Assembly (NCBI GenBank): GCA_038087875.1
Contig: CM075989.1
Location: forward strand, 868,001 to 932,000
DNA from: Malacoraja senta
Taxonomy: Eukaryota
Direction: 5' to 3'
Length of the DNA: 64,000 nt
Below the pieces are notes generated by a model. It saw nothing but the letters and a program-made list of their open reading frames with translations. It was not told the origin of the DNA and did no database searches. The position numbers and the translations under genes are program-made. The stretch's first letter is position 1; each line of letters begins with the position of its first letter. Below are positions 2,282 to 32,198 of the stretch, piece by piece.

Positions 2282-2841
2282 ATTGAACGGAGTTCACTAA
2301 GCTAAAGATGTGTGCTCAATCTTCCAATCTACCATGTTACGCCCTTACACATTTAACCTGTAGCTGTAATACTATATTCTGCACTCAGTTCCCCTTCCCT
2401 TTTTGCACTGCCTGTTGTACTCATATGTGGTCTGATTGTACTTATGATTTGCCTGAATGCCATACAACATTTTTATACATTTTTTGTCAGTACGTAGATC
2501 AATAGATTAATCGAGTCATGGAGCATGGAACTTGCCCATGCTGACCAAGATACCCATCAACATCATGTGCAGACGGGGCGTCGAAGGACAAGAAGCCGAA
2601 GCAGAGAAGTGGAAGCCAAGAAATGGAAACGATGCCCCGAAAAGCCAAATAACCAAATGAAAACAACGCCGAAAAGCCAAATAACTGAATGGACTCGACG
2701 CTGAGAAGCAAAATACGCAACGCCGAAAAGCCAAATAACGGACATGACGGCTCTGGAGATGGGATTTATCTGAGACCTTGTCAGAGATTGCTCCAGACCC
2801 CACGTCCATTACATCACTGGGGGAGACGGGAGGGTGGGGAA

Positions 2842-2934
<93 letters not shown>
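2842..2934. repeat. (GATA)n microsatellite
   Basis: Perfect ATAG run seen directly. Confidence 0.98.
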
Positions 2935-3464
2935 GTGCGGACATGGTGCCGACGGACGAAAAGCCAAAGCAAAGTAGTCAAAGATAAAGAACCGAATGGA
3001 AACGAGTCCAAAACGCCAGAAAACCGAAAGAGTACGAAGACGAAACGCCTACTAACCAAAAGGGTGGGACGCCTAAAAGGCAACAAACCGAAAAGCTGCG
3101 TTGCCTAAAAGCAAACTCACCGATTGGCCGCTCTGTTGAAATGCCACCTACCAGAAAGGCGTCGTCACCTACAAGCCAACGAACCGACTGTCACTCAACA
3201 GAAAAGTCCAATAACGGACATGACGTTGCCGGGGGACGGGACTTGTCAGCGATTGGTCCAGACCCCCGCGTCCATCACATCACTGTGGAGGGATGAACAA
3301 TGTCCCATACATCCCCTCCACCGACCCACAAGCCGCGGAGGGTGGTCGTGGGAGAGTGGGGGCTGTCCCGAGGGATGTGCACCTTCGGCCGCTTTCAACT
3401 TGGTGCTTGGGTTCACATTGCCCAGTCACCTATGGCTTGTGTGGGAAAATGACCCCCATGCTCC

Positions 3465-3860
3465 CGTCTCCCCCTTCTCTCTCCCCTCTTCTTTTTCTCC
3501 CCCCCTCTCTCTCCCTTCTCTCTCTCCCTTCTCTCTCTCTTCCCCTTCTCTCCCTTCTCTCTCTCCTCTTCTCTCTTTCTCTTCCCTCTTCTCTCTTTCC
3601 CCCCTCTCTCTCTCCTCCTCCTCTCTCTCCCCCCTCTCTTTCCCTTCTCTCTCTCCCCTTCTCTTTCTCTCTCCTCTTCTCTATCTCCCCCCTCTCTCCC
3701 TTCTCTTCCCCTCTCTCCCCCTCCTCTCTCTCCCTCCTCTCTCTCCCTTCTCTCTCTCCCCCTCTTTCTCTCCCCCCTCACTCTCCCTTCACTCTCTCCC
3801 CTTCACTCTTTCCCTCCCACTCTCTCTCACTTCTTTCTTTCCCCATTCTCCTTCCCTTTT
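3465..3860. repeat. CT-rich low-complexity polypyrimidine tract
   Basis: About 400 nt almost exclusively C/T. Confidence 0.95.
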
Positions 3861-3930
3861 GCTTCTGCAGCATAAAGGCAGAAGGGAAGGAACAAGGGTG
3901 AAGAGGAAGCACTGGAAGAGGTCTCAGTGA

Positions 3931-6371
3931 GTGAAGCCTCTCTTTCTAAGAAGATTCAGGTTTGGACAGTATGACAACCTGATTATTGTGCTGACAGAGG
4001 AGGATGTCTCTGCATTTAGAAACTTCACAAGGATACCACCTAAGCTGTTTAATGAGCTGAAGACAAATGTGGGACTACTGCTGAAAATGTGGGATCACGT
4101 ATATGAGAAAGGCACTGGAACCAAGCCTGCGACTAGCCATCACCCTCCGCTACTTGGCATCAGGGGATTCGTATAAGAGTCTCTCCTACAACTTTCTGGT
4201 TGCCCACAACACCATCAGCAAGATTGTCCGAGAGACCTGTAAGGCCATTATCAAGGTCTATGGAGATAATGTGATGGACTGCCCCAGTACACCAGATGAG
4301 TGGAAGACAGTGCCGCTGGGCTTTGACAAATGATGGAACTTTAAACACACATGTGGGGCAGTGGATGGCAAGCATGTGGCCATCCGGTGTCCACCCAAGG
4401 GAGCGTCAAAATACTTTAATTACAAGAAATGTTATTTGATTGTACTGTTAGCTGTGGTGGATTCAGACTACAAATTCCTGTATGTGGATGTGGGCACACC
4501 TGGAAGTGTCGCTGATGGCAGGATCTGGAGAGAGACCTGACTTGGGCAGTCACTGGAAAATGGAACAGCAGGCATGCCTGATCCCAAACCTCTGCCAGGA
4601 GAAGACAACCCGGACATTTTTTACGCAATGGTTGGTGATGATGCCTTTGCACTAAGGCCCTGGATGATGAAGCCATGCCCACACAGGGTCCATTTGACAA
4701 GGGTCCAGAGGATCTTTCATTACAGGCTGTCCAGGGCTAGGAGGGTTGTTGAAAACGCATTTGGCATTCTCGCAAGCAGATTTCGATGCCTGCTCACAAC
4801 TATGGAGCAGGAGCCCAAGAATGTCGAGACTATTGTGTTTGCAGCATGTGTTCTGCACAACCTTATCCATATCAGAGGTACAGCAGCGGGATCATCAACA
4901 GCCATGGAGGAGCGCGACTCGGTGAACAATCGTACAGCGAACATAACACCAGGAGCGTGGAGGAGTGGTGTATATGATGCACCTTTGGTGTCACTGCAGC
5001 GATTGTCAGGTAACACCGGGACAAAGAGTGGAAAAAAGCAGAGACCATCTCTGTTCTTACTACAACTCAATACTGGGCAGTGTGCCATGGCAGAACAAAG
5101 TTATTTGAGAAACACCAGGCAACAGGTCCACCACTGCAGGTGGAGAGCCCACTGCAGACATGATCAGTCATTTTTATGTAAAATTGAAATCCTACTGAAT
5201 TTGTTTGATTCCAGGTCGAGTGTGATTTTTATTTTTTTTATTTTTGTAGAAATGACTTTTTTGCAGAAGTCTGTTCTTAAAGCAGTGCCTGCCATGCATC
5301 TGTTTTATTGATTAGTATAGTTAAATCTCTAAGCCTAACCTTGGAGAGCATAGCATTGTCTGTCTTATTTTTCAATCTTTGATAGCGTTTTATTTCTCAG
5401 GTTCATAAGAGGAATTGCGGAAAAAACGTTCCTTGTGTTTTGTTTGGTTTGGTTTTTTACATTAATTGACATGCATGAGAGGGCCTAATACAGATCATTG
5501 TGTTGCTTGCTTTGTTGCTCCATTTATCAAAATGTGTAAAAATGGTCTCTTTCATTTCACGAGATGAATAAAGAATTTGATTTCCATTCAGTGTGCTGCT
5601 TGTCTTATTTTATGGTCTATTGAGAGGTACAATAAATTTACATTTAAAATGCAGAACATATGAGGTGCCTGTGTCAATTCTTACTTATAAAAAGGATTTT
5701 GAGAAATAAGATGTGAATAGATTGTGTTCCTTCCTCGATTTGGTGCATGCCTAAATTTCCATAAAATATGATGAAGTATTACATTCAAGTGATGACAAGT
5801 TGGAATTAAAATAAAATGAAGGCTTGCAGACGACAATTTGAGATTTAGAAGAAAAAATTATCTTTTATTGTGCATAAAAGGAAAATATGTTGTTTGTTTC
5901 TTAGGTGCCATCACCACACAACGTCCTGCTCCAAAAGACTCTCCAGCAATGAGTGCAAACTCCCTGCAGTGACAGAGGTCACGTGCTGATGTTGACTTGA
6001 TTTTTTTTCACTCACCTTTTTTCTATCTGTCCAGCTGCCGAGCTACGAGTACCCACGAATATGTACGGGTACCCACGACTACGTATGACTACCGTCATGG
6101 CATACTACAGTCTGCCCACTGACTAACTACGAGTTAGAAGTTGCAATTTCTCTCCTCCAGACTATCTTTTTACTCGTGGAGTTTTTTGCTGGGAAAAACG
6201 TCCCGACTTACCTGATGCCCCGAGTACCTACGGCTGGCATAACGAGCCACTACGATATATCTACGGACTCCTACAGCCTCCTACGAACTCGCTACAGACA
6301 TTCTCCGAGTTTGAATCAAAGGGAAAACTCGGGAGAATTCGTGAGTAAATCGGGAAAATGGGACAGGCCCT
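3931..6371 (+). mobile_element. PIF/Harbinger DNA transposon, 5'-truncated, with disrupted DDE_Tnp_4 (HARBI1/ALP1-like) transposase at ~3931-5110
   Basis: Motifs LAITLRYLASGDSY, GAVDGKHV, VGDDAFAL and YRLSRARRVVENAFGILASRFR are split over several frames, with a stop near 4331. Right terminus ...TGGGACAGGCCCT at 6371 is followed by TAA. No left TIR seen. Confidence 0.88.
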
Positions 6372-7029
6372 TAACTGTATCACCAGCATCACTAGAAATT
6401 GCATTGAGTTTCACAACATTAGTGGGCGGCACGGTAGCGCGGCAGTAGAGTCGCTGCCTCTCAGCACCAGAGACCCGGGTTCGATGCTGACTACGGGTGC
6501 TGACTGTATGGAGTATGTACATTCTTCCTGTGACCGTGTGGGGTGTCTTCCAGTGTTCCGGTTTTCTCCCACACTCCAACGATGTACAGGTTTGTACGAT
6601 ATCGTGGAGTTTTTTGCTGGGAAAAACGTCCCGACTTACCTGATGCCCCGAGTACCTACGGCTGGCATAACGAGCCACTACGATATATCTACGGACTCCT
6701 ACAGCCTCCTACGAACTCGCTACAGACATTCTCCGAGTTTGAATCAAAGGGAAAACTCGGGAGAATTCGTGAGTAAATCGGGAAAATGGGACAGGCCCTT
6801 AACTGTATCACCAGCATCACTAGAAATTGCATTGAGTTTCACAACATTAGTGGGCGGCACGGTAGCGCGGCAGTAGAGTCGCTGCCTCTCAGCACCAGAG
6901 ACCCGGGTTCGATGCTGACTACGGGTGCTGACTGTATGGAGTATGTACATTCTTCCTGTGACCGTGTGGGGTGTCTTCCAGTGTTCCGGTTTTCTCCCAC
7001 ACTCCAACGATGTACAGGTTTGTACGATA
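6174..7029. repeat. 428-bp direct tandem duplication (6174-6601 / 6602-7029)
   Basis: Two copies, identical by eye, each containing the Harbinger right end and the 5' half of a SINE. Confidence 0.95.
6853..7029 (+). mobile_element. tRNA-derived V-SINE (HE1-like), 5' half (duplicate at 6425-6601)
   Basis: GGCGGCACGGTAGCGCGGCAG head, B-box-like GGTTCGAT, and V-core-like TGTATGGAG...TCCGGTTTTCTCCCAC; cut at ...TTTGTACGATA. Confidence 0.8.
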
Positions 7030-8414
7030 TAGGGTGTGGGCCGAGCATCGAAAATGTGGCTAGAATTTAAATTTCGTAACCCATGTCTGGGAACATTGAT
7101 AAAATATAATTGAGAAGGAAGTCATAACTCGTCAGTGCCTAAAGTTGCACATTAATTAATGAAGCTAATTAGAAAATGAGTTCGAAAAGTTAAGCGCCAT
7201 CTAATGTTCAATGCTCATATTACTCCATGGGGAGCCTAATTACGTGCTGCTGTCTGTGTCTATTTAAAACATATATTATTTTACCACATATGTGTGTATT
7301 ATACCATATAACTTGTAAATATGACTGGAGTTATATATATAATTATAATATATAAATAATATAATGAATATAATTATGAGTGTGTTTTTTGAATGAGACT
7401 GCCGCAGACGTCCGGCTCCTGAACCAGCCTAATTAATGGTTGAGGGCAGTTCCTGTGGGTTCCCCTGTTTACTGTACCCCACCGACTGTCAGTTTGCATA
7501 GTGGGGGTCACGGCCATAGTGGGACTGGGGCAGTGCCGGGCTGGGGGAAGGCAAAGGCATCTTCCACTGAGAAGAAAATGCCTAACCCTAACCATAGCTA
7601 GTCCCCCTTCCAGAACTGCCCATGGCTGGAGCTGGAGTCGCTTTGGGATATGCGGGCTCAGTAAGTGTGGCCGCTCAGTGCGTCCACCTCGACCAGCGTG
7701 CCCTTCTGGATCATCATGGTGATGATGGTGGGGAGCAGCACTGCCCTGTACGCCGCCCGGGCCGCCTTCAGCCCGCTCGCTTGCCAACAGCCCGACCGAC
7801 CCCTTGCAGCTTCCATTGGCCTACTGATAGCCCGACCGATCCTTCACAGCATCCACCGGGACCCGACAGCCCAACAGCCCGACTGACTGACTGACCGATC
7901 GACTGCCCAACTGACTGACCAACGAACTGACCGACTAACTGACCGACTGACCGACTGACTGATTTCTGACTGACCCTAATCCTAACCCTAGCTCTACATT
8001 TTTGTTTATCATTTTTATTTAACAGTTCACATCGTAACTTTACAAAGATCAATCAATTGTAAAACAAAATTATCAACAAGGTTAGCATTATCTTTATTCC
8101 TTCAAAACCTTGCTATTGTTTTGATGTAATTAGGAGGCAGCTATGATCCCAGAGTGCTCGCTGCCTAGCTACCTTGAAACAAAGCGCGTGATTGGTCAAT
8201 TGGCGTACGACGCAATGTCAAACGTGCGTTGTTTGGACAATTACTACTCAGAAAATTTGAGTTTTTTCTCATATTTTACAAATATGCGCAGGTTTTGTTC
8301 TTGACGAGTCAGTTATGATTTCTATAATATTTTTACACAATATGTTAAAAATTCAGGTAGTTACGTAATTTGTGTCACGAACTTAAACGAAAAAGCACCT
8401 CGGCCCGCAGCCTA
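7030..8414. mobile_element. Non-autonomous TIR DNA transposon, copy 1 (TAGG termini; superfamily uncertain, possibly Academ-like)
   Basis: 16-bp TIR TAGG(G/C)TGTGGGCCGAG ... CTCGGCCCGCAGCCTA; internal (GACT/GACC)n array; collinear with copy 2 at 18191-24923. Confidence 0.85.
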
Positions 8415-8444
8415 TTGTGAGTCATGACATACTGCATACAAAGC

Positions 8445-8626
8445 TATATTTAAGAGGGAGTTAGATGTGGCCCTTGTGGCTATAGGGATCAGGGGGTATG
8501 GAGAGAAGGCAGGTACGGGATACTGAGTTGGATGATCAGCCATGATCATATTGAATGGCGGTGCAGGCTCGAAGGGCTGAATGGCCTACTCCTGCACCTA
8601 TTTTCTATGTATCTATGTATCTATGT
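8445..8626 (+). mobile_element. CR1 LINE 3'-end fragment
   Basis: Matches the 3' end of the full CR1 copies (51145-51322) with a (CTATGTAT)n tail; AAAGC on both flanks. Confidence 0.85.
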
Positions 8627-8949
8627 AAAGCCATGCGGATGATTCCTAATTATCCTATTCTGTTCCAATTGGAAGTATATCCTATCCCGAAGAATTGTCG
8701 CCAATAGCTTCCCTCCAACTGAACTCATTGGCCTAGAATTCCCTGGCTTTTATGTATCTATCCAAAAGTTTCTTAAATGCCGTTGACATATGTTCCTCCA
8801 CCACCCCTAGCAGCGTCTTCCAGGTAATCACTACCCCTGTGTTAAAATAACTTGTTCTGCACATCTGCTGTTCGCTTTGCCACCCTCACCTTAAAGCGAT
8901 ATCCTCTAGTCTTTGATATTTATACCCGGGAAAAATAAGGTTCTGAGTG

Positions 8950-10990
8950 TCTATCATGTTAATCATAGAAAGTTGTTAGTTAAATTGAGTCAAAGAGGGG
9001 TGCCTAAATATATTGTGAGAATTCTGGCTTACTGGTATGCCCACCAGACTATGCAAGTAAAATGGGGCAATAGGGTGTCAGCCCCATTTGGGGTTAGCAC
9101 TGGTGTCAGACAAGGGGGAATTTTGTCCCCAGTTCTTTTTGATCTCCATACTGCTGATCTGTCCAAGCAATTGAAAGCCTGTAATACAGGGTGCATGATT
9201 GGTAATACTCTAGTGAGCCATATTATGTATGCGGATGATCTTGTGGTCTTTAGTGCATCAAGCGCTGGTCTCCAGCAGCTCCTTACTATATAATAATAAT
9301 AATAATACATTTTATTTATATAGCGCTTTTCAGGACTCAAAGTCGCTTGTTATCTGTATGGTGTAGAATACATATGTTATCTGTATGGTGTAGAACATGA
9401 TATCAAATGTAATGCTGGTAAGAGAGATGTTATGATCTGAACTATAAAGGATAAATGCCTAAAATGTCCTGATTTTAAATTGTCTGACAATAATCTTAGT
9501 GTCTGTAATAAGGTAAAATATCTTGGACATCTTATTACAGAACAAATGACAGATGATGAGGATATTTATAGGCAACACTGTATGATGTATGCACAAGCAA
9601 ACATTCTCTTATGCAAGTTTAGTGCTTGTACAGATAGAGTGAAGCTGTCTTTGTTCAGAACATATTGTAGAGATTAGAGATTCCTTTATTTGTCATTCAG
9701 ACCTTTCGGTCTGAACGAAATTTCGTTGCCTGCAGTCATACATATAATAATAAATGACAAAACACACAATAAACACAAATTAACATCCACCACAGTGAGT
9801 TCACCAGGCACCTCCTCACTGTGATGGAGGCAAAAGTCTTAAAGTCTCTGTCTCTTCCCGCTTTGTTCTCCCTCTGCGCTGAGGCGATCCAGGCTTCTGA
9901 TGCTGTGACCCCGCCGGGCGACGGTAAGCCAGTCCCGCGGCCAAATCCGTGCTCCGCGACGGGCCGGCTCAAACTCCGCGGCCCGAATCCGTGCTCCGCG
10001 ACGGGCCGGCTCAAACTCCACGGCCCGGGGTGGTCGAAGCTGCCGAAGCTGCCGCCCTCCAGTCCAGCGGACGCAGCGGTAGTTGCGGGAGCCCCAGAAA
10101 AACAGGTCACCAACCTGTGACCTGCGCGCTCCCGACGATGTCGTCCACTGGGCCCGCGGCCGAGCCTCCGGATTCAGGTCGCCACCAGTATCTTTGGTCG
10201 CCACCGCCGGAACGCCACCGCAGCCCCGAAGTTGGCCAGCCCCGCGCTGGTAAGTCCTGGCTCTGCCTCCGGAGCCTCGAGGTCGGTCGGTCGGTCGCTC
10301 GCAGTTGGAGTTGGAGGCCGGCAGCTCCGCCATTTTGGCCTCAGCGCAGACGGAGGCAGAGAAGGGGGATACGACAAGAAAAGTCGCATTCCCCCGAAGG
10401 AAGAGTCAAAAGTCATGTTTCACCCCCCCCCACCCCACCCCACACATACACAACCCAATAAACTAAAATTTAACTAAAACAGGACAAAAGAAAACAACAA
10501 AAAAAGTAAAAACAGACGGACTGCAGGCGAGCCGCTGCTGTACGACAGCGCCGCCACTCTATACTGCACACCTGTGGTCAAACTACAGAAAAGCAAGCTT
10601 ACAGAGACTTAAAGTAGCTTATAATCATGCCTTGAGAATATTACTTAAGAGACCTAGATGGTGTAGTGCAAGTGAAATGTTTGTGGCTGCAGGAGTCAAT
10701 ACTTTACAAACTGTCTCAAGAAATCTTATGTATACATTTATTTGCCGGATTAATGACTCTGAAAATGAAATCATCTTGGCCTTATCAAACATAAGGTTTA
10801 ACACTACACACTACCAATCGCAGCTGTGGAGACATTGGTATAGTTGTCTCGTTGTAGGACACAGACTTTTTTAAATTCTTGATCTTAAACCATGTATTGT
10901 GCTTTTGTAAGTAATTTACTGTGCTTTTGTATGCAATTTATTCTATGTAATGTCTTGTATTTTATCTGGACCTTGAGTCTGTAATAAAAA
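8950..10990 (+). mobile_element. Non-LTR retrotransposon RT fragment (RTE-X/Proto2-like, clade uncertain), interrupted
   Basis: GVRQGGILSPVLF, YADDL, KYLGH and PRWCSASEMF motifs; AATAAA near 10983; interrupted at ~9290-9345 and 9670-10556. Confidence 0.75.
9670..10556 (-). mobile_element. GC-rich non-coding retroposon (non-autonomous LINE-like or SINE-like)
   Basis: Short-repeat tail with AATAAA on the minus strand at the left end; shares terminal regions with 53403-54243; no convincing ORF. Confidence 0.6.
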
Positions 10991-11141
10991 GTAGGTAAGT
11001 ACCTCTGACTCTCATAGTTCTAGATCCTCTCAACCTTTGGCGCTCTACAGAAAACAATCTGTTTGTCCAAGCTTGTAGTCAATTCCTCCGCTAATCCAGG
11101 CAGCTTTCTGTTCTGCACCCTCATATTCATAAATTAAATCT

Positions 11142-12037
11142 TTAATTAAAGAACCGAAAAACCGAGGTGACCGGATATTTCACGGCGCTCTTCAGCTGTT
11201 CCCGGAATTTGGACTGAGTCGCCGCGTAAATAAATGTGTTCGTGCAACAGCTAACATCTGCCAGCAACATTCCAACTTGTGAAAATATCTTTTCTGAATC
11301 ATTGCCTCCCTCCCCTGTCCCTGCTATCTGATAGTAGATGAATTCTATAACAAATGTCAGCCACAGGAGGATAAAGCTGCTGGAGAGGGTGAAGAGTAAA
11401 ATCACAGACCTCCTCCTGCTTTCCAGCTCTGGGTCACTGCGGTTATCTGCCTTGTTTTGACCCCTTAACCCCTCACGGACCCTACTTGCTATCAAAATAT
11501 GTCTGATTGTGAGAATATTGAACATGACAATTACAGCGAAAGGGAGGAGAGGAGTTACTACAGTGCGGAAGCAATCAAATCCCACCCATCCGGGGTCAGT
11601 GAAATAACTTGGCTTCCTGTAACAAAACCACGGTATGTTATCGATGATCGTTGCAGGCTCATAAGTGAAGTAGAAGGGAATGTTTTTCAGACAAAGTAGA
11701 ACGCCGGTTATTGCCAGAACAACGGCCGCAGTTTTTCCGGTGCAATATTTTGTTTTCAGTTTCTGGCAACAAATTGCAATAAATCGATCAAATGTGAAAA
11801 TCACTGTAAACCAAAGAGAAAAATCTGCGGCTGCATAGCCCAGTGCAAGATTAGAACTACACACAGGAGTAATGTCCAGATAACTGCCTGGAAAATAATG
11901 ATCATTGATCCGATACAAAACGACCTCAGTAATGATGAGCAATAGGTCCGCCGCTGCCATGGCCACCAGGTATCGAGTGGTGCAGGTGGAGAGGCCACAT
12001 TTCCCCCGGGACAGGATCACAATCGCCACGATATTCA
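11142..12037 (-). CDS. Class A GPCR, GPR139/GPR142-like, coding exon 2
   Basis: Open frame with hydrophobic TM segments, TM2 AAADLL, TM3 FTFDRFIAIC, TM7 NTFIY and stop TAA at 11144-11142. Acceptor ttttttctctcttcAG ends at 12038. Confidence 0.93.
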
Positions 12038-12056
12038 CTGAAGAGAGAAAAAACAC

Positions 12057-13058
12057 ATTAGCTACCCTCCAATCCTCAGGAACTACTCCAGAATCTAAGA
12101 GTTTTGAAAAATTATCACTAATGCATCCACTATTTCTGGGGCTACTTCCTTAAGTACTCTGGGATGCAGCCTATCTGGCCCTGGGGATTTATAGGCCTTT
12201 AATCCATTCAATTTACCTAACACCACTTCCCGGCTAACCTGGATTTCACTCAGTTCCTCCATCTCATTTGACCCCCGGTCCCCTGCTATTTCCGGCAGAT
12301 TAATTAAGTCTTCCTTAGTGAAGACAGAACCAAAGTAGTTATTCAATTGGTCTGCCATGTCCTTGCTCCCCATGATCAATTCGCCTGTTTCTGACTGCAA
12401 AGGACCTACATTTGTTTTAACTAATCTTTTTCTCTTCACATATCTATAAAAACTTTTGCAGTCGGTTTTTATGTTCCCTGCCAGTTTTCTTTCATAATCT
12501 ATTTTGCCTTTCCTAATTAAGCCCTTCGTCATCCTCTGCTGGACTCTGAATTTCTCCCAGTCCTCTGGTAGGCTGCTTTTTCTGGCTAATTTATATGCTT
12601 CATCTTTTGTTTTGATACTATCCCTGATTTCCCTTGTTATCCACGGATGCACTACCTTCCCTGATTTATTCTTTTGCCAAACTGGGATGAACAATTGTTG
12701 TAGTTCATCCATGCAGCCTTTAAATGCCTTCCATTCCATATCCACCGTCAACCCTTTAAGAATCAATTGCCAGTCTATCTTGGCCAATTCACGTCTCATA
12801 CCCTCAAAGTTGCCTTTCTTTAAGTTCAGAACTCTTGTTTCTGAATTAATTATGTCACCCTCCATCCTAATGAAGAACTCAACCATATTATGGTCACTCT
12901 TGCCCAAGGGGCCACGCACAACAAGACTGCTAACTAACCCTTCCTCATTACTCATTACCCAGTCTAGAATAGACTGTTCTCTCGTTGGTTCCTCTACATG
13001 TTGATTTAGAAAACTATCCTGCATACATTCCAAGAAATCCTCTTCCTCAGCACCCCTG
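12057..13058 (-). mobile_element. CR1 LINE ORF2 internal fragment in the GPCR intron
   Basis: Near-identical to the CR1 ORF2 at 48885-49875 ([26 protein letters not shown]). Confidence 0.92.
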
Positions 13059-13059
13059 T

Positions 13060-13685
13060 TCCTAGGACTCGAGGGCCTGAGCTATAGAGGTTGGGGCAGG
13101 CTCGGATTTTTTCAATGGAGCACGAGAGGATGAGAGGTGATCTTATAGAGGTGTATAAAATCATGAGAAGAAAAGATCCAGTAAACGTAGTCTCTTACCC
13201 AGAGTAGGGAAATCGAGAACCAGAGGACATAGGTTTCAACTGAGGGCGGCGGGGGGAGAGATGTAATCGGATGCTGAAGGGTAACTTTTTGACACAAAAG
13301 CTGGTGGGTGTATTGTACTAGCTGCAAGAGGAGGTAGTTGAGGCAGGGACTATCCCAACGTTCAAGTTCAAGTTCAAGTTACATGTGTTGTCACCTGCAC
13401 CAGTTGGTACAGTGGGATTTGAGTTACCATACAGCCATACGGAAAAAAAGAACACAATACACGATAGAATTTAACATGAACATCCCCACACAGCGGAATC
13501 AACGTTCCCACTGTGAGGAAAGGCAACAAGAAACATTTAGGCAGGCGTATGGATAGGACAGTTTCAGAGGGATATGGGCCAAACTCGCAGGCAAATGGGA
13601 GTAGTGTAGATGGGACATGTTGGTCGGTATGAGCAAGTTGGGCCGAAGGGCCTGTTTCCACCCTGTATAAGTCTATGATTCTAAT
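13060..13685 (+). mobile_element. Old degenerate CR1 3' region, interrupted by a short LINE-tail fragment
   Basis: RMRGDLIEVYKIM-like remnants and 3' tail GGGCCGAAGGGCCTGTTTCC...CTATG. Confidence 0.7.
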
Positions 13686-13689
13686 ATTT

Positions 13690-14120
13690 AGGAAAGAACT
13701 GCAGATGCTGGAAAAATCGAAGGTAGACAATAAATGCTGGAGAAACTCAGTGGGTGAGGCGGTATCTATGGAGAGATGGAATAGACGACATTTCGGGTCT
13801 CACCCGCTGAGTTTCTCCAGCATTGTCTGTCTACCTATGATTCTAATACATTTTTCATGTTCCCCATCCGAAATGTTTAATTGCCTAGATAATAAAAAGG
13901 AACTGCAGGTGCTGATTTATACCAAATAAAGATACAAAATGCTGGAGTAACTCGGCGGTCAGTCAGTATCAGTCAGTGGATAGGTGACGTTTTTGGTCGG
14001 AACGAAGAAAGGTTGGTCTGAAGGGTCCCAACCCTAAACCTCACCGATCCAAGATCTCCAGAGATGCTCGCTGACACGCTGCGTTCCTTCAACACCTTCT
14101 GTCTTTTTTGTAAACCAACA
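13690..14120. mobile_element. Two short fold-back Penelope-like pLTR fragments
   Basis: 13690-13835 is an inverted pair (ATGCTGGAGAAACTCAG / CTGAGTTTCTCCAGCAT) flanked by duplicated CTATGATTCTAATA. 13890-14120 is a similar, more decayed inverted pair. Confidence 0.65.
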
Positions 14121-14913
14121 TCCCTGTTCAAACATGTACCTGCCCAACTACGTCTTCAAGTCTGTGCCTGAACATGAATTGTAAGCGCACGCACTTTCAT
14201 GTAGTCAGCAAATACAAACATATGCCACTTTGTTCCCTCGATATATTGCGAATACCTGGGGCACAGCTCTGGTCCACAGCTTAGAGCTGCCAGCTAGAAA
14301 GAGCCACCTTCGTTCCAACCTCCGCTATCTCTGAATCATATGTTACTGTTAATCCCAATTAAAGATGCAAAACGCGGGACTTTATCAAAGACCTGGAGAT
14401 CCAAACGCAGAACGACGTCCAAGTTCAAGTTACCTTTATTGTCTTTTGCTCTTTTATCAATGTAGCAGTCGACAGAAACTCAGCAGGTTGTTCATAAAAC
14501 GACCTTTTTTATACATCATGCAATCACTTAATATATTCAAAGGATTCTGCTCTCACATCCTTTCTGATATGTTGTTGAGTTTTATCTGCGGGTGTGTCAG
14601 ATACTCCGGCTCACTTCTCTTCCTCGTTTTGGGTAAATAACGGGTTACACTCGCCCCATCCAATTTGCAGTGACCTTGCTCGGTCTTGCATGTTTAATGC
14701 ATTTCGCTTCCATTATTTTACCGTCATTATTGTTTCTTACCAATAAAGCAACATTTTAATTATTGCTTCTTGTGAGATGCTTTTCTGTAATATCTCTGAA
14801 ATGTTATTTATCAGTTCATCCGTGAACGCAAAACGACGTGTTTGTTTAATCGTTTGATTCTTTGCTTTGCTTTATAAATTCACGCACGGATTTAAACTGC
14901 AGCGCTGACTTAC

Positions 14914-14980
14914 CAGGAATTCCAATGACGGCAATGAGTACATACAATTTTTTCTCGACACTGTTATACCTTTCCAGCAT
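14914..14980 (-). CDS. Class A GPCR, GPR139/GPR142-like, coding exon 1
   Basis: ATG at 14980 gives MLERYNSVEKKLYVLIAVIGIP plus G, then donor GTAAGT at 14913. The phase-1 join to exon 2 restores IGIPVNIVAIVIL (TM1); total 320 aa. Confidence 0.88.
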
Positions 14981-15781
14981 TTTCTCTGCGAAGAGACGAG
15001 TTTTATTTTGTTGCGAGTAACCTCTCCAAATCAAATGTTGAGCGAAACGTTCCCAGATTTATGTGATACCTTCTGGGATCCGCACAGGGACATTAAGGTT
15101 AGAACTTAACTAAAAATGGCGACGGTCGACTGACATTCCTCTAAGGACGGATACCGTTCAGTTGAACGAATTCATTGAGAAACTGCAAAGACCAGAAGGG
15201 ATTAATTTTGCTCACGGGATTAATTCGAGAAATTGAGATATTATTGCAACGCATCTGAACAACAATCATGGAATCATAGTCATACAGCATGGAAACAGGC
15301 TCCTATCAAGATACCCCATCTACATTAGTTCCATCTGCCTGCGTTTGGCCCATATGCCTCGAAATATTTTCTATCCATGTACCTGTCCAAATATATTTTA
15401 AAATGTTGTTATATTACCTGCTTCAACTACTTCCTGTGGCAGTTACCCTTCAGGTTCCTATTAAATCTTTCCGCCTCATCTTAAACCTATGAGGTTTGGT
15501 TCTTGAGTATAGGACTCTGAGCATCTACCCATGATCTTCTCCCCATGATCTTAGATACCTCTGAAAGAGTACTTGTGCTCCAAGGAATAAAGTTCCTAGC
15601 CTGCCCAACCTCTCCCAGTAGCTCAGAACCTGAAGTCTTGATACAATCCTCGTGAAACTTCTGCACTTTTTTCCAGTTTCACAACATCTTTCCTATAGTT
15701 GGGTGACCACAATATTCCAAAACGTGGACTCACCAATGTCTTGCACAACTGTAACATAAGATCACAACTTCTATGGTCAAT

Positions 15782-16850
15782 GTAGACACAAAGTGCCGGA
15801 GTAACAGCGGGTCAGACAGCATCATTGGAGATAAAGGATGGGTGATGTTTCGGGTTGGAACCCTTCTTCAGACTGGAAGGAATTGGAGGAAAGAAAAGAC
15901 CCGAAAAAAGCAGAGCCGGCAACAGATGATCAAGGAAGTGTAGAGCTCATAATGGTCCATTGTTGGCTATGGAAGAGTTGAACGAAGGGATATCAGGATG
16001 TGAACAGTGGAACTAGTAGGACGACTAGGATGGGGTAGGGTACTTGAAATTTAATTTCTATTGTGTATTGTGTTCTTTTTATTCATATGGCTGTATGGTA
16101 ACTCAAATGTCACTGTATCAATTGGTGCATGTGACAATAAATGCGAACTTGAACTTGAACGTGAACTTGAACTTGAACCAGCGTACACATCACTGGGCTG
16201 TAAGCTGCCCAGGCGAAATATGCGGTACTGTTCCACCAATTAGCGCATGGCCTCACTCTGACAGTGGAGGAGGCCCTGGACAGAAAGTCAGTGTGGGAAT
16301 GGGAGTTAAAATATCTGGCAACCGGGAGATTGGGTAGACCAAGGCGGACTGAGCATAAGTGTTCAGCAAAATGATTGCCCAGTGTGCGCTTGGTCTCGCC
16401 GATATATAGGAGCCTACACTGAGAATAACGGATATAGCAGTGGAGGTGCAAGTGAACCTCTGCCTCATCTCAAAGGACAGTTGGTGTCCCTGGGTGGAGT
16501 TGAGGGAGGAGGTATAGGGACTGGTGTTGCATCTCCTGCGGTTGCAGGTGAAAGTACCTGGGGAGGGCGCGGTTTGGGTGGGCAAGGATGAGTTAACCAG
16601 GGAGATGCGGAGGGAACAGTCTTTGTGGAAAGTGGAAAAGGGGTGGAAATGGGAAGATTTGACTAGTGGTGGGATCCCGTTGAAGGTGGCAAAAATGTCG
16701 GAGGATTATGTGCTCTATGAGATGGCTGATGGGATGAAAGGTGAGGATGAGGGGGACTCTGTCCCTGGTGCGACCGGGGGGAGGAGGAGCAAGAGCAGAG
16801 CTGATGGGTACCAAGGAGACCCCTGTGAAGGCCTCACCTATATAGAAGAA
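15782..16850 (-). mobile_element. Penelope-like element fragment (GIY-YIG endonuclease region plus pLTR)
   Basis: YCIRYSQCRLLYIGETKRTLGNHFAEH and TCNRRRCNT motifs; hammerhead-like core at 15844-15871; small insertion at ~16045-16177. Confidence 0.8.
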
Positions 16851-16854
16851 GGAA

Positions 16855-17570
16855 TCCACAATCCCGTTTATATCAATGGGATGATGGTGGAAAGGGTCAA
16901 AAACTTCAAATTCTTGGGCGTGCATATTTCCTGGTCCCAGCACACTGATGCAGTTATAAAGAAGGCACATCAGCGCCTCTACTTCCTGAGAAGATTACGA
17001 AGAGTCGGTATGTCAAGGAGGATTCTCTCAAACTTCTACAGGTGCACAGTAGAAAGTATACTGACTGGCTGCAACGTGGTTTGGTTCGGCAACTTGAACG
17101 TGCAGGAGCGGAAAAGACTGCAGAAAGTTGTGACCACTGCCCAGTCCATCACCGGCTCTGACCTCCCCACCATCGAAGGGATGTATCGCAGTCGCTGCCT
17201 CAAAAAGGCTGCCAACATCATCAAAGACCCACACCATCCTGGTCACACTCTCATTTCACCCCTGCCATCAGGAAGAAGGTACAGGAGCCTGATATCTGCA
17301 ACATCCAGGTTCAGGAACAACTTCTTCCGCACAGCCATCAGGCTATTAAACACGACATCAAATAAGCTCTGAACAATAACAGTCTATTATTATTATTGCA
17401 CTATATCTGTTTATTTATTGTGTATATACGGTCTATGGTATATAGACACACTGAACCTTTATCTTCCGTTTTGTATTATGTTTACATATTCTGTTGTGCT
17501 GCAGCAAGTAAGAATTTCATTGTCCTATCTGGGACACATGACAATAAAACACTCTTGACTTGACGACTTA
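16855..17570 (+). mobile_element. Rex1/Babar-like LINE 3' fragment
   Basis: VERVKNFKFLGVHIS, KKAHQRLYFLRRL and FYRCTVESILT motifs; 3' UTR with AATAAA and a (CTTGA)n tail. Confidence 0.8.
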
Positions 17571-17571
17571 A

Positions 17572-18190
17572 GTCAGTGCAATGCTCCTCCTGCAGGATGT
17601 GGGAAGTCAGGGAAAGTGCAGGTACCCCTGATGACCACACCTGTAGGAAGTGTGTCCAGATGCAGCTCCTTGAATACCGCAATAGGGAATTGGAGCAGCA
17701 GCTGCTTAATCTCAGGACCATCCGGGAAAATGAAAATATCTTGGACAGGACTCATAGCGAGGTGGTCACACTGAAGAGCGAAGGTGGGTGACCACCAGGA
17801 AGGGAATGCAGGTGAGCCCAGTGGCCGTACCTCTACAAAACAGATGCATCCTCTAGGGTGCTGTTGGGGATGATGACACATCTAGGTTGTGCAGCAGTGG
17901 CAGGCTGGGCTGTGACTCCGACCCTGGCACTGAGGCTTAACAGGGAAGGGTGAAGTCAGGCAGAGCCATAGAGGTGGGCGACTCTATAGTTGGGGGTGCA
18001 GACAGGACATTCTGCAGCAGTAGTCGAGACTCCAGGGTGGTGCGCTGTCTCCCAGGTGCCAGGATCCAGGACATCCCGATGCGGCTTCATGATGTCCTTA
18101 AGGAGGAGGAGGAACTCTCAGACGTTATTGAGCATGTTGGCACAAATGTTACAGGTAAGAAAAGGAAAAGGTTCTGCAATATGCTAGGTA
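17572..18190 (+). mobile_element. Degenerate CR1 ORF1 (zinc finger plus SGNH esterase)
   Basis: CSSCRMWEV..HTCRKC, GDSIV, CLPGAR and HVGTN motifs; cut by the TIR element at 18191. Confidence 0.8.
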
Positions 18191-18429
18191 TAGGCTGTGG
18201 GCCGAGCATCAAAAATGTGTCTAGAATTTAACTTTTGTGACTCATGTCTGGAAACTACTTGAAATTTGGCACAGATTTAGATGAAATATAATTGAGAAGG
18301 AAGTCATAACTCGTCAGTGCCAAATTAGAAAAGTTAATTAGAAAATGAGATCTAAAAGGTAAGCGTCATCTAGTGTTCAATGCTCATATTACAATAATTG
18401 GAGCCTAATTCCATGTTGCTGTCTATTTA

Positions 18430-19857
18430 GAAACATAGAACATAGAAAATAGGTGCAGGTGGAGGCCATTCGGCCCTTCGAGCCAGCACCACCATTCATT
18501 GTGATCATGGCTGATTGTCCCCAATCAATACCCCGTGCCTGCCTTCTCCTCATATCCCTTGATTCCACTAGACCCGAGAGCTCTATCTAACTCTCTCTTA
18601 AATCCATCCAATGACTTGGCCACCACTGCACTCTGTGGCAGGGAATTCCACAAATTCACAACTCTCTGGGTGAAAAAGTTTTTCCTCACCTCAGTCTTAA
18701 ATGGCTTCCCCTTCATTCTAAGACTGTGGCCCCTGGTTCTGGACTCGCCCAACATTGGGAACATTTTTCCCTGCATCTAGCTTGTATAATTTTATATGTT
18801 TCTATAAGAACCCCCCCTCGTCCTTCTAAACTCCAGTGAATACAAGCCTAGTCTTTTCAATCTTTCCTCATATTACAGTCCTGCCATCCTAGAGATCAAT
18901 CTCGTGAACCTACGCTGCACTGCCTCAATCACAAGAATGTCCTTCCTCAAATTAGGAGAACAAAAGAGGACACAATTCTCCAGATGTGGACTCACCGGAG
19001 CCCTATACAACTGCATAAGAACCTCTTTACTCCTATACTGAAATAATCTTGTTATGAAGGCCAACATTCCATTAGCTTTCTTCACTGCCTGCTGTACCAG
19101 CACGGCAACTTTCAGTGAGTGGTGTACAAGGACGCCCAGATCTCGCTGCACCTCCCCCTTGCCTAACCTAACCCCATTGAGATAATAATCTGCCCCCTTG
19201 TTTTTGCCACCAAAGTGGATAACCTCACATTTATCTATATTATACTAACATCCTCTTCACAGTTCACGCTGCTACCCAGCTTTGTGTCATCTGCAAACTT
19301 GCTAGTGTTGCTCCTAATTCCCTCTTCCAAATCATTAATATATATGGTAAACAGTTGCGGTCCCAACACCTAGCCTTGCGGCACTCCACTCGCCACTGAC
19401 TGCCATTCTGAAAAGGACCCGTTCACTCCTACTCTTTGCTTCCTGTCTGCCAACCAATTTTCTATCCATGTCAACACCCTACCCCCAATACCATGTGCTC
19501 TAATTTTAGTCACCAGTCTCCCGTGTGGGACCTTATCAAAGGTTTTCTAAAAGTCTAGATACACTACACCCACTGGCACCCCTTCATCCATTTTACTTGT
19601 CACATCCTCAAAAAATTCCAGAAGATTAGTCAAGCATGATTTCCATTTCATAAATCCATGTTGACTTGGATTAATCCTTTTACTACTATCAAAATGCCCC
19701 ATTATTACCTCTTTAATAATTGACTCCAGCATCTTTCCCACCACCGGTCAGGCAAACTGGTCTGTAATTCCCCGTTTTCTCTCTCGCTCCTTTCTTGAAA
19801 AGTGGGATAACGTTAGCTATCCTCCAATCCACAGGAACTGATCCTGTACGATCGAAC
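18430..19857 (-). mobile_element. CR1 LINE, 5'-truncated
   Basis: RT motifs (QHGFM, VYLDF, HLENCV); CTATGTTT-type tail; ATTTA duplicated at 18425-18429 and 19858-19862. Confidence 0.9.
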
Positions 19858-19942
19858 ATTTAAACCATATATTATTACACTATGTATATAATGTGAATAT
19901 GACTGGAGTTATGCATAATCATATATAATTATATTATATAAA

Positions 19943-21779
19943 CTACTAGACTCCCAGCATCACACAGGAGGGCTGGTCCCTCAATGCAATATTTCACCTC
20001 TCCACCAATTTCAAGTAGGGTGCAGACCACTAAAGACAGCAAGTCGTGACCTCTCCCTCCCCATCTTGCACAGACTGAGCCACGCCCACACTTCCGGGTT
20101 TTATAGTCCCTCCCACTCCCACCAGAAGGGGCGTGGCCTTCATGGCGTGATTGACAGGAGAGAGAATCTCAACATTTTTTAAAACACTAATAACTCTTTT
20201 AATTTTCATCAATGGGAAAAGTCCTCGGCACCTGATGTGCGGAGGGAGACTGAGTAAGATGGCCAAATATCACAGCCGTACGTGGTAGCGTGTTTTCTAA
20301 AATCAATATAAAGCGCAACCAGGAAGTGGTCAAGATTAGAATTTTAATTATACAGAAGGCAATGCAGCTTTAACTAGGCAAGGCAGCTTTAATTAGGCAA
20401 GGTAGCTTTAATTATCCAAGGCAGCTTTAATTAGGCAAGGCAGCTTCAATTGTGCAAGGCTACTTTAGCACTTTCAAACCATAGGCAAGGCAGCTTTAGC
20501 ACTTTCAAACCATAGGCAAGGCAGCTTTAGCACTTTCAAACCATAGGCAAGGCAGCTTTAGCACTTTCAAACCATAGGCAAGGCAGCTTTAGCACTTTCA
20601 AACCACAGGCAAGGCAGCTTTAGCATTTTCACACCAAAGGCAAGGCAGCTTTAGCACTTTCAAACCAAAGGCAACACAGCTTTAGCACTTTCAAACCAAA
20701 GGCAGCACAGCTTTAGTACTTTGAAACCAAAGGCAACACAGGTTTAGCACTTTGAAACCAAAGGCAAGGCAGCTTTAGCACTTTGAAACCAAAGGCAACA
20801 CAGCTTTAGCACTTTTGAACCAAAGGCAACACAGCTTTAGCACTTTGGAACCAAAGGCAACACCGCTTTAGCACTTTGGAACCAAAGGCAACACAGCTTT
20901 AGCACTTTGAAACCAAAGGCAACACAGCATTAGCACTTTCAAGCCAAAGGCCACACAGCTTTAGCACTTTCAAACCAAAGGCAACAAAGCTTTAGCACTT
21001 TCAAACCAAAGGCAACAAAGCTTTAGCACTTTCCAACCAAAGGCAACACAGCTTTAGCACTTTCAAACCAAAGGCAACACAGCTTTAGCACTTTCAAACC
21101 AAAGGCAACACAGCTTTACCACTTTCATACCAAAGGCAACACAGCTATAGCACTTTCAAATGAAAGGCATCACAGCTTTAGCACTTTCAAACCAAAGGAA
21201 ACACAGCTTTAGCACTTTCAACCCAAAGGCAACACAGCTTTAGCACTTTCAAACCAAAGGCAACACAGCTTTAGCACTTTCAAACCAAAGGCAACACAGC
21301 TTTAGCACTTTCAAACCAAAGGCAGCATAGCTTTAGCACTTTCAAACCAAAGGCAACACAGCCTTAGCACTTTCAAACCAAAACACACTTTTGCATTTTC
21401 AAACTACATTTTCAAACCACATTAAGGGTACTGACAGGTCAGTAAAACCACTCACAGTTGAGTAGACATGTGTTCAGTGTTATTCACAGCTCAGATGGAG
21501 AATTGCGACCTCTCACTCCCCCATCTTGCAGAGAACTGAGGCACCTCCACACTTCTGGGTTTTATAGTCCCTCCGGAAGGGGCGTGGCCTTCAGGAGAGA
21601 GAATCTCAACATTTTTAAAACACTAATAACTCTTTTATTTTTCATCGATGGGAAAAAATCCTCTTGTCCTGCGGAACGGAGGGGGACTGAGTAAGATGGC
21701 TAAAAATCATTTTTTTCTAAAATCAATATACAGAACTACAGGAAGTGGTCAAGACCAGACTTTTTGTAATATAGATAGA
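19943..21779 (-). mobile_element. Non-autonomous Helitron-like element
   Basis: Absent from copy 1 of the host element. On the minus strand it begins TCTATCTATATT and ends CTAG(TAG), sits between A and T, and has no TSD. No clear 3' hairpin seen. Confidence 0.65.
20358..21382. repeat. Minisatellite: ~5 x 19-bp units grading into ~30 x 31-bp units (GGCAACACAGCTTTAGCACTTTCAAACCAAA)
   Basis: Head-to-tail repeats with no spacers. Confidence 0.95.
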
Positions 21780-22541
21780 TAATATAATGACTATCAAGAG
21801 AGAGTCAAGAGTCAAGAGTTTTATTTTATGTGTCCCAGATAGGACAATGAAATCCTTGTGAGTGTGTATTTTGAATGAGACTGCCACAGAGGTCAGCCTA
21901 ATTAATGGGTGAGGGCAGTTCCTGTGGGTTCCCCCGTTTACTGAACCCCACTGACTGCTAGTGTGCAGGGTGGGGATCACGGCAGTAGTGGGACTGGGGC
22001 AGTGCCAGGCTGGTGGAAGGCTAAGGCATCTTCCACTGAGAGGAAAATGCCTAACTCGCCACCTTCCAGAGCTGCCCATGGCTGGAGCTGGGGCTGCTTT
22101 GGGACCGGCTGCGGGCTCTGTAAGTTTGGCCGCTCAGCACGTCCACCTCGTCCAGCATGCCCTTCTCGATCATCATGGTGATAATGGTGGGGATCAGCAC
22201 TGCCCTGCATGCCACCCGGGTTGCCTTCAACACCCCCATAGCGCCGGCTGGCCGACAGCCCGACCGACCCCTCGCAGCATCCACCGGCCTACCAACAGCC
22301 CGACCAATCCTTCAAAGCATCGACCGGCCTACCGACAGCCCGACCGACCCTTCGCAACATCCACCGGGGCCTGACAGCCCAACTGATCCTTCACAGTGTC
22401 CACCAGGGCCTGACAGCCCGACCGACTGACTGATCGACTGACCAACGGATTGACCGACCGACCAAACGACTAAATGACTGACTGACCGACCGACTGACCG
22501 ACCAGCTGAGTAACCGACTGACTGACCGACTGACTGGCCGA

Positions 22542-22992
22542 CATGGGGCGGAAATCCCGGGGGGATGGAGGGGAACACGTCACTCCCATGTTTTGAGAGG
22601 TGGGGGACAATCTCCCCCATGTTTTGTAATCCGGATTTTGAAATTCTGATCATTTTTAAATTAAAGTCTCCACTTTCCGCGAGACAGTGAGGGTGTCACT
22701 GTTTAGCGCTTGTTAAATATCTCTGTTATCATCGTATTAACACGATGTGTCACCAATTGTGTTTTGACCTTCAAGTATTACTGAAGGTATTCACGGAGAA
22801 TTTCTTAAAGCTGTCTGATGCGGGTACAATTACCATTTGAACTTATTGGATGTATTGGTGGATGGGAAAGATTTAAACGGGTGTCGAAATTAAACAGGTC
22901 AGGTCATTAAGGGGTCCGGTCGAACAGGTTTCCAGGCTGGCTTGCAGGTAAGTCCCTCATTCAGGTCACTCACGTTATTTAGTATGTTTTTC

Positions 22993-23029
<37 letters not shown>

Positions 23030-24445
23030 CTCCAAGGTTGGTTCTTCTGTTTGCCTTTATTTGCTTGAGTTTTATTTGTTTGTGTTATTTATCCCATTGT
23101 AGTTTTTGAAAGATTCAAGCGGGTATCATAGGCATTCTAAGGGCTGAATCGGCCTGTTCGCAGGGCCTTTCATTGCCCAGTGCAGTTTAAAATCAACTGC
23201 AGCGTCGAGGCAATCCAGGCTCCCGATGTTGAAACCCCCGCCGGCCGATTTTCAGCCGCGCCGGGCAATGAATGGACCCGAGTCAAGTCAAGTCACATTT
23301 ATTTATATAGCACATTTAAAAAACAACTCTCGTTGGCCAAAGTGCTTTACATTTGTTATAAGAATAGTATAAACAAACAAACTACATATATATATATACA
23401 TATAGCCCTCGCTCAGAGGACGTCAAGAAAGGCTTGGGAGTATAGATACGTTTTTAGTCTTGACTTAAAGGAGTCGATGGAGGGGGCAGTTCTGATGGGA
23501 AGGGGGAAGTTGTTCCACAGTCTAGGAGCTGCAACCGCAAAGGCGCGGTCGCCCCTGAGCTTACGCCTAGACCGCGGGATATTCAGCAACCCCAAGTCGG
23601 CCGATCTGAGGGACCTGGAGGTGGAGTGGTGGGTAAGAAGACTTTTGATGTACGTGGGGGCAAGCTCATTGAGGGCTTTGTAGACATAGAGGAGGATCTT
23701 GAAATGTATACGGGACCGCACAGGGAGTCAGTGGAGAGAGGCCAGGATCGGGGTGATGTGGTCCCTTTTTCGGGTGCCCGTCAGGAGTCTCGCTGCGGCG
23801 TTTTGGACCAGTTGCAGGCGGGACAGGGAAGATTGGCTGATGCCAGTGTAATGGGAGTTGCAGTAATCTAGGCGGGAGGAGATAAATGTGTGGATGATCT
23901 TTTCGAGGTGATCAAAGTGGAGGAATTGTTTTATTTTAGCTATCGTCCGAAGCTGAAAGAAGCTAGCTTTCACCACGGCATTGACTTGTTTGTCAAATTT
24001 CAGTGCTGAGTCAAATATCACGCCAAGGTTTTTGATGTGAGGTTTGAGTAGTGGGGTAAGGCTTCCAAGGCTGCCTGCTATCATTTTGATTGAGTCCGAG
24101 GGGCCGAGAAGGATGACCTCAGACTTACTCTCGTTTAGTTGGAGGAAGTTCTGGGCCATCCAACACTTTATATCCTCGAGGCAGTGGGTAAGGTTAAGCA
24201 GATTTTATTGGTTTTTGGGCTTCAGTCAAGCCCCACGATTCAGGGTGGACGAAGCTGCTGTTGCTGGAGTTTGGAGTCGGTCATGATCCCGATGTTACCA
24301 TCCACAGGGCCCACGTCTGAAGCCTCCAAAACCACTCGTGTGAGTGTGTGGGTGTGTGTGTGTGTGCGTGCGTGCGGCCACCAAGAAATTGTGTCCCCCC
24401 CCAATTGTGTCCCTCCCATGTTTTGATAGCGATTTCCACCCCAGT
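22542..24445. mobile_element. Non-autonomous TIR element (possibly hAT-like) containing a (CT)n tract and an L2 fragment
   Basis: TGGGGCGGAAATC ... GATTTCCACCCCA inverted termini; absent from copy 1 of the host; TSD not resolved. Confidence 0.55.
23281..24225 (-). mobile_element. L2-clade LINE 3' fragment
   Basis: WMAQNFLQLNESKSE, SRLDYCN, HITPILASLH and GDRAFAVAAP motifs; (TGACT)n tail; same family as 25844-29668. Confidence 0.9.
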
Positions 24446-24923
24446 ATGACTGACTGACTGACTGACTGACTGACCCTAATCCTAATCCTAACCCTAGCTC
24501 AACATTTTTGTTTATCATTTTTACTTAACAGTTCACATCATAACTTTACAAAGATCAACCAATTGTAAAACAAAATTATCAGCAAGGTTAGCATTATCTT
24601 TATTCCTTCGAAACCTTTGTTATTGTTTTCATGTAATTAGGAGGCAGCCATGATCCCAGAGTGCTCGCTGCCTAGCTACCTTGAAACAAAGCGCGTGATT
24701 GGTCAATTGGTGTCCGACGCAATGTCAAACGTGCATTGGTTTGACAATTACTACTCGGAAAATTGGAGGTTTTCCTCGTATGTTAATAATATGTGCAGGT
24801 TTTGTTCTTGACGAGTTTCGGGTATGATTTTTATAATATTTTTACACAATATGTTAAAAATTCAGGTAGTTACGTGATTTGGGTCATGAACTTAAATGAG
24901 AAAGCACCTCGGCCCACAGCCTA

Positions 24924-25045
24924 ATAATTGACCGGTTAGATGCAAAATTGTCCCCAGTGTGCAGGATTGTGCTAGTGTAAGGATTGATCGCTGGTCAGTG
25001 CAGAGCCGGCGGGCCAAATGGACCATTTACGCTCTGTATCTGCAT
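24924..25045 (+). mobile_element. V-SINE (HE1-like), 3' half
   Basis: ATAATTGACC...AAAATTGTCCCCAGTGTGCAGGAT...GATCGCTGGTC...CTGTATC continues the SINE cut at 7029, by comparison with SINE copies at 33780-33868/58929-58977 and ~60300-60500. Confidence 0.78.
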
Positions 25046-25269
25046 CGTCTAAAGACAAAAAGTCATGTCTCCTACATGGATACAGCAATAAACTAGAATC
25101 TCGCACTGAAACCCTTGATATACTGCACACCCTTTTATCGGGTCAATTTGCAACTTCCCCTTGAACCTCCGTGTTTATCGGCCAGGTCTGGGCAAGTTAC
25201 AAACCGCCATGGTAACTTCCAGAGTAGAGTACATTAACTGTACCCACCAAAGCAATATGTAACTTGTTG

Positions 25270-32130: not shown

Positions 32131-32198
32131 TAAATACAGTATAATGGGAGTACTTGCCTCCACCACCTCTTATACTCAGTGAAGGTGGTTCCCTGCAA

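Follow-up and report, generated by a model that had tools for sequence, protein, structure and literature searches.

The 64,000-nucleotide stretch of the Malacoraja senta genome considered here (GenBank assembly GCA_038087875.1, contig CM075989.1, positions 868,001–932,000 of the forward strand) is referred to as the window, and all positions below are those of this whole stretch. It contains a 17.9-kb block, 7030–24923, in which two copies of one terminal inverted repeat (TIR) element bracket a predicted GPR139-like receptor gene and which lies between the two parts of a short interspersed nuclear element (SINE). We propose that the block is probably a macrotransposon, moved as one unit via its outer termini. 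This reading is favored because target duplications in the TIR family are 3 bp long, the block has matching flanks at its outer ends only, the SINE is rebuilt when the block is removed, and the remainder of a long interspersed nuclear element (LINE) that ends at the second copy is missing. An initial annotation of the window had suggested a one-unit move by the outer TIRs; this stands as the best-supported explanation of the locus, although the single-step move itself is unproven. The assembly totals 1.94 Gb in 6182 contigs, and the window contains no N.

Allowing one mismatch, the window contains four occurrences of the 16-nt family terminus TAGGCTGTGGGCCGAG, at 7030 and 18191 on the plus strand and at 8414 and 24923 on the minus strand, against a mean of 0.37 expected from shuffling. 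These termini delimit the two copies that the initial annotation had drawn at 7030–8414 and 18191–24923, in the same direction. Copy 1 (7030–8414, plus strand; TIRs 7030–7045 and 8399–8414) is 1385 bp long and collinear with the family unit over its full length, and in a BLAST comparison with the window its sole match is copy 2, collinear and in the same orientation. Copy 2 (18191–24923, plus strand; TIRs 18191–18206 and 24908–24923) is 6733 bp long and consists of a family unit of about 1.45 kb and three extra blocks of nested repeats (18438–19857, 19943–21845 and approximately 22543–24447); alignment to a majority consensus of 17 copies gives family-unit segments 1–259, 248–348, 357–902 and 996–1478. 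The extra blocks contain an open reading frame (ORF) resembling reverse transcriptase, a 31-bp tandem array and further repeats. The array was located at 20330–21466 by a repeat scan of the window, and its 1.1 kb of 31-bp repeats lies between direct repeats of about 200 bp (20074–20272 and 21535–21709) that are 78–96% identical in pieces. The outer ends of the whole block are one left and one right terminus, each within one mismatch of the family terminus. ORF translations and a Pfam scan find no transposase ORF in either copy.

Judged by divergence, both copies are old. Copy 1 differs from the family consensus by 11.4% and the core of copy 2 by 11.5%, compared with 4.6–9.6% for 15 other copies, the youngest sampled being 4.6% from consensus. 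The two copies differ from one another by 14.6%, which is below the sum of their distances to the consensus and therefore places both in one older sublineage.

The flanks of the two copies carry the central evidence. The left junction reads ...GTACGATA, then copy 1, then TTGTGAG..., and the right junction reads ...GCTAGGTA, then copy 2, then ATAATTGACC.... The flanking triplets are ATA and TTG for copy 1 and GTA and ATA for copy 2, and the only matching pair is the outer one, ATA at 7027–7029 and ATA at 24924–24926. Reading of the junctions likewise bears out the mismatched inner flanks noted at the outset, TTG after 8414 and GTA before 18191. Outside the matching triplets lie the two parts of the target SINE, both on the plus strand: a 5′ part at 6851–7026, 83–87% identical to 38 other copies in the genome, and a 3′ part at 24927–25050, delimited by alignment to intact genome copies.

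To rebuild the SINE, 6852–7029 was joined to 24927–25062 with one ATA removed, and the product was compared with 28 intact copies from the same genome. It aligns through the joint with all 28 (77–82% identity), most alignments reaching the element end, and in 25 of them no gap falls within 2 nt of the joint. The commonest indel nearby, present in 14 of 28, is a loss of 1–2 nt at a distance of 6 nt on the right side, where the copies vary among themselves anyway. The halves overlap by exactly 3 bp, with no gap or large overlap on joining, and the earlier description of a split SINE with an ATA duplication is upheld. Where intact copies read ...TTGTAGGTTAATTGGC..., the window reads ...TTGTACGATA on the left and ATAATTGACC... 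on the right. The duplicated position is TTA in 20 of the 28 copies and ATA in a single one, which is the copy nearest to the window's SINE. Both ATA copies in the window share this rare state, as expected for a duplicated target.

The length of this duplication agrees with that made by solo members of the TIR family. The family is abundant, with 2977 first-look candidates in the genome (40 scored), 658 exact matches to a left-end 20-mer and 687 to a right-end 17-mer; reversed-pattern controls give 0 for both. Ordinary members are approximately 1.4–1.5 kb long and align end to end with copy 1 at 76–81% identity. Among 29 other loci sampled for target duplications, 18 have both termini inside the locus, and the 11 with at most one terminus located were left out. 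The 3-bp flanks of these 18 solo copies are identical in 15 cases, differ by one base in two (L017 and L008) and are obscured in one by a damaged right end (L025). Two further solo copies also have a perfect 3-bp duplication, bringing the total to 17 of 20, where chance agreement would be 1/64. Solo copies thus make a duplication of the length that the initial annotation had read from the ATA pair. The duplicated triplets are varied (gta, cat, taa, ttg, tag, tat, tca, ttc, tcc, aag, tgt, aaa, aat), which indicates that there is no fixed target sequence. The TA found at both element ends is part of the element. A TA duplication of the Tc1-like kind was considered and rejected, since the rebuilt SINE would keep 5 extra bases and the solo copies duplicate 3 bp outside the TA.

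Superfamilies with 3-bp duplications include PIF/Harbinger, CACTA/Chapaev, Academ and Zator, and PIF/Harbinger elements combine this length with a preference for TWA. In the TIR family the duplication is 3 bp long, its triplets are diverse, and no transposase was found in the copies looked at. Non-autonomous elements are classified by their termini and duplication length (PMC4455052). One family copy (L078) carries, at its positions 2272–6070, a nested ORF much like one at 30876–32285 of the window; the latter is a 469-codon open frame in a stretch of 34% GC that, by reading, is the C-terminal part of an L1-like ORF2.

The inner side of copy 2 provides a further line of evidence. The passenger DNA between the two copies (8415–18190, 9776 bp) contains the receptor gene together with LINE and other repeat fragments. 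Its right end, 17596–18190 on the plus strand, is the 5′ part of a LINE, comprising the GDSL-esterase region of ORF1, and this fragment is cut off where copy 2 begins. In whole LINEs elsewhere in the window, ORF1 has a GDSL-esterase domain, and the fragment is collinear with its first 600–700 bp. A search with the 300 bp preceding copy 2 gives 1434 first-look candidates of this LINE family in the genome; similarity to the 39 other copies scored extends until 7–11 nt before the terminus, and three other LINE copies, read directly, run on into the rest of ORF1 at the point where the window enters copy 2. The missing continuation is absent to the right of copy 2. A LINE with its 5′ part and without its 3′ part is an interrupted LINE, and the cut-off is as expected if copy 2 once sat inside the LINE and the distal part was left at a donor site. 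On the other inner side, copy 1 is followed by the tail of a common repeat, and the majority of the copies of this repeat begin about 25 nt inside the flank; two near-identical longer copies are uninformative.

The window also holds three young LINEs with a GDSL-esterase ORF1, endonuclease and reverse transcriptase (34838–38063, 47140–51323 and 52812–57856), which are 94–98% identical to one another; two of the three face each other as a large inverted pair. The LINEs at 47.1–51.3 and 52.8–57.9 kb were considered as the donor remainder and rejected, as both are whole across the breakpoint.

With copy 1, exon 2 of the receptor gene and both inner flanks as queries, no donor or duplicate of the passenger was found in the assembly. 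The best other matches are 81% for copy 1 over the full query (up to 88% over part), 82% for the inner right flank (88% over part) and 86% over the full length for the inner left flank. The donor locus with the same inner junctions that had been envisaged in the initial annotation is therefore not seen in this assembly. The lack of a second passenger copy fits cut-and-paste movement, and the gene seems to have been relocated without being duplicated, with no gain of a paralogue visible.

The passenger gene is predicted to encode a rhodopsin-type G protein-coupled receptor of the GPR139-like group. It lies on the minus strand in two exons. Exon 1 (14914–14980) contributes 22 codons and 1 nt and is followed by a GT donor at 14913; exon 2 (11142–12037) is preceded by an acceptor AG at 12039–12038 and comprises coding sequence from 12037 to 11145 and a stop codon at 11144–11142. 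The spliced frame of 320 codons has no internal stop or frameshift. With four shark and ray proteins as queries, tblastn places residues 1–22 at 14980–14915 and residues 23–320 at 12038–11145. The product matches Pfam 7tm_1 (PF00001) with E=5.7e-21, and the continuous frame and this match agree with the intact two-exon receptor gene described earlier. Protein relatives number 2278 at E<=1e-10, with a best identity of 74%; nearly all of the 120 relatives listed are named GPR139, mostly as ‘probable’ or ‘putative’ under automatic annotation, and come from sharks, skates and rays. Of 22 sequencing runs listed, none is recorded as RNA; two runs of one organism contain shares of 0.64 and 0.54 of the sequence words of 10900–15100, and runs of six other organisms contain 0.28–0.35, values that are uninformative on junctions, relatives or expression.

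The receptor family is large in this genome (1315 first-look candidates), and tblastn finds no other such gene in the window. The 39 other scored paralogue places are 77–78% identical to the window gene over the coding part of exon 2 only. These 39 best-scoring paralogues all lie off contig C13, mostly on small contigs and some in pairs (C2342, at 80 kb and 104 kb); the window gene is a singleton on a chromosome-scale contig. The paralogues likewise have two exons, spaced by about 0.9 kb, and the intron of the window gene is longer (2.9 kb) because a LINE fragment lies inside it (12095–13081, minus strand; recognized as a LINE from its translation, Pfam giving no family for the ORF). The intron also contains a hairpin of approximately 150 bp at 13687–13842, with arms at 13715–13758 and 13799–13842 that are 86% complementary. 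Of 11 paralogue loci, 8 have this hairpin next to exon 2, at 85–87% identity, and it may be an old intronic miniature inverted-repeat transposable element or a conserved element of the gene family. TIR family sequence is absent from all of these 11 loci (0/11), taken with flanks of at most 1.5 kb. The initial annotation had also raised the possibility that the block is a route for spreading GPR139-like paralogues. That suggestion finds no support here: the paralogues are similar at 77–78% in coding sequence only, no second passenger is present and no paralogue locus examined contains the TIR family.

From these features we infer a donor locus, a transposase and a single-step move, as follows. 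At the donor locus, separate insertions would have placed two non-autonomous copies, similarly oriented and some 10 kb from one another, on the two sides of a GPR139-like gene, with TTG as the original target duplication of copy 1 and GTA as that of copy 2. A transposase supplied in trans would then have treated the left terminus of copy 1 and the right terminus of copy 2 as a pair of ends, so that everything between them was cut out, and the resulting 17.9-kb unit would have inserted at ATA inside the SINE, generating the 3-bp duplication. The receptor gene would have been carried along with its promoter region, and its frame is still open.

Several observations weigh against this account. 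No family transposase was found: three long copies (10.5, 3.0 and 3.6 kb), drawn from about 51 pairs of exact termini, 1.0–10.6 kb apart, that were matched by eye on one contig, contain nothing but simple repeats and nested LINEs. Neither an empty or donor site nor an orthologous locus came to light, the assembly having no other 100% match to the SINE half, and the four junctions are those of the assembled sequence. Inside the window the SINE comparison is thin, with two partial matches of which one (46 nt) crosses the joint. The flanks of copy 2, GTA and ATA, differ at one base only, so the case against a solo insertion of copy 2 depends on its non-contiguous flanks, LINE on the left and SINE on the right. 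Where copy 1 begins, a perfect 428-bp tandem duplication comes to an end, which leaves assembly quality, or subsequent events, in question at exactly one junction of the four. Finally, the junctions would look alike if the passenger had been inserted by homology into a solo element, and sequence cannot separate the two.

This last possibility is the main rival, and we regard it as unlikely while giving it more weight than the other alternatives. A solo element would first have entered the SINE, creating the ATA duplication, and the passenger would have arrived later by recombination within that element, either through break repair templated on an ectopic element–gene–element locus or through integration of a circle excised from such a locus, an alternative that the initial annotation had also raised. 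Identical junctions and flanks are what this scheme predicts, and copies 1 and 2, belonging to one sublineage, were once perhaps similar enough to recombine. It needs an extra step, however, namely a prior solo insertion at the same site together with two crossovers. Templated repair should also keep the donor, and the assembly holds no second passenger copy, although integration of a circle would leave none. Copy 1 is collinear with ordinary family members throughout and shows no visible mosaic, which need not show in any case.

Stepwise rearrangement, in which separate insertions, deletions or crossovers among dispersed copies put the SINE halves outside the block, appears improbable. The abundance of the family makes crossover between copies possible, but a single crossover deletion replaces one flank and not both, and the exact 3-bp overlap of the SINE halves is unexpected from stepwise events. 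Among the alternative-transposition products known from maize, transposition involving sister chromatids would, by reasoning, put a SINE half on one side only, whereas use of termini on the same chromatid gives both halves and the duplication. The repeated unequal crossover between copies that the initial annotation had listed as an alternative fares no better, a recent event being unlikely between copies 14.6% apart and a crossover not being expected to split the SINE. That the block is a chimeric join in the assembly is more improbable still. The 428-bp duplication adjoins the left junction and can signal an unmerged overlap, yet a misjoin would not give complementary SINE halves with a duplication of the family length. 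The window contains no N, the copies are far enough apart (14.6%) that an assembler would not confuse them, and the left junction retains its support because the second unit of the duplication itself passes from the SINE half into copy 1.

The duplication consists of two units, 6174–6601 and 6602–7029, that are 100% identical; each comprises the end of a decayed PIF/Harbinger element, 33 bp of other DNA and the 5′ half of the SINE. The second unit stops no more than 1 nt from the start of copy 1, and the joint has 1 nt (T) in common. The duplication either arose long after the elements or is an assembly artefact, for instance an overlap left unmerged where the graph branches. The decayed PIF/Harbinger element itself occupies 3931–6378 and belongs to a family with 2261 first-look candidates in the genome; pieces of DDE_Tnp_4 lie in three frames at 4334–5311. 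Other copies match it until about 6058, but by reading its right end is ...GGGACAGGCCC at 6378, with TTA coming next; roughly the final 205 bp fall within the 428-bp duplication. This element, 2 kb to the left, was considered as the autonomous partner of the TIR copies and set aside, as its termini differ.

Taken alone, the locus is a single old event without donor or comparative support. A broader reading would take it as a natural germline macrotransposition in a vertebrate that carried a complete receptor gene with its promoter, and possibly as one instance of a general route by which the GPR139-like family of sharks and rays, with more than 1000 copies, is scattered from arrays; we consider this a long shot. 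In a bolder variant, the perfect duplication may mark recent cleavage at the left terminus, so that the composite could still be acted on.

If the macrotransposon interpretation of the block is true, the locus would be a clean vertebrate example, indicating that in animal genomes, too, entire working genes can be relocated by a pair of non-autonomous elements. A testable prediction would follow, that relatives have the empty SINE or the donor arrangement. A word-matched search of open papers returned plant papers or passing mentions and no case of macrotransposition in a vertebrate.

The logic of such a unit is shared with bacterial composite transposons such as Tn5 and Tn10, in which two insertion sequence elements flank passenger genes: the outer ends of two simple elements mobilize the DNA between them. 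The present block differs in that its copies are non-autonomous and would need transposase in trans, its host is a eukaryote and there is no sign of repeated mobility. In Drosophila, paired elements carry host genes to a new site in giant transposing elements with foldback elements and in P-element pairs; the element families and end structures differ here, and the likeness is drawn from general background on those systems. Macrotransposition has been documented experimentally and in one well-studied natural case, in maize, and Huang and Dooner (2008) and Wang et al. (2022) reportedly belong to this literature.

The maize systems offer the closer comparison. The White Cap (Wc) locus was created when a pair of Tam3L elements of the hAT superfamily moved Ccd1; the criteria applied there were that neither element has a duplication of its own, that flanks are non-contiguous and that the outer junctions show a matching duplication (10.1101/082677). 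Ac macrotransposons of 10–28 kb, formed by Ac/fAc pairs, excise and reinsert (PMC9910405). Relative to these accounts, the host here is a cartilaginous fish, the duplication is 3 bp instead of the 8 bp of the maize hAT elements, and the elements are old (about 11% from consensus), with no known donor locus and no gain in copy number, in a case built from sequence. The arrangement is otherwise the same as in the maize descriptions: a pair of TIR elements from one family brackets host genes and the outer termini act as those of one transposon, a duplication typical of the family surrounds the whole block while the single elements have no match of their own, and the flanks become contiguous once the block is removed.

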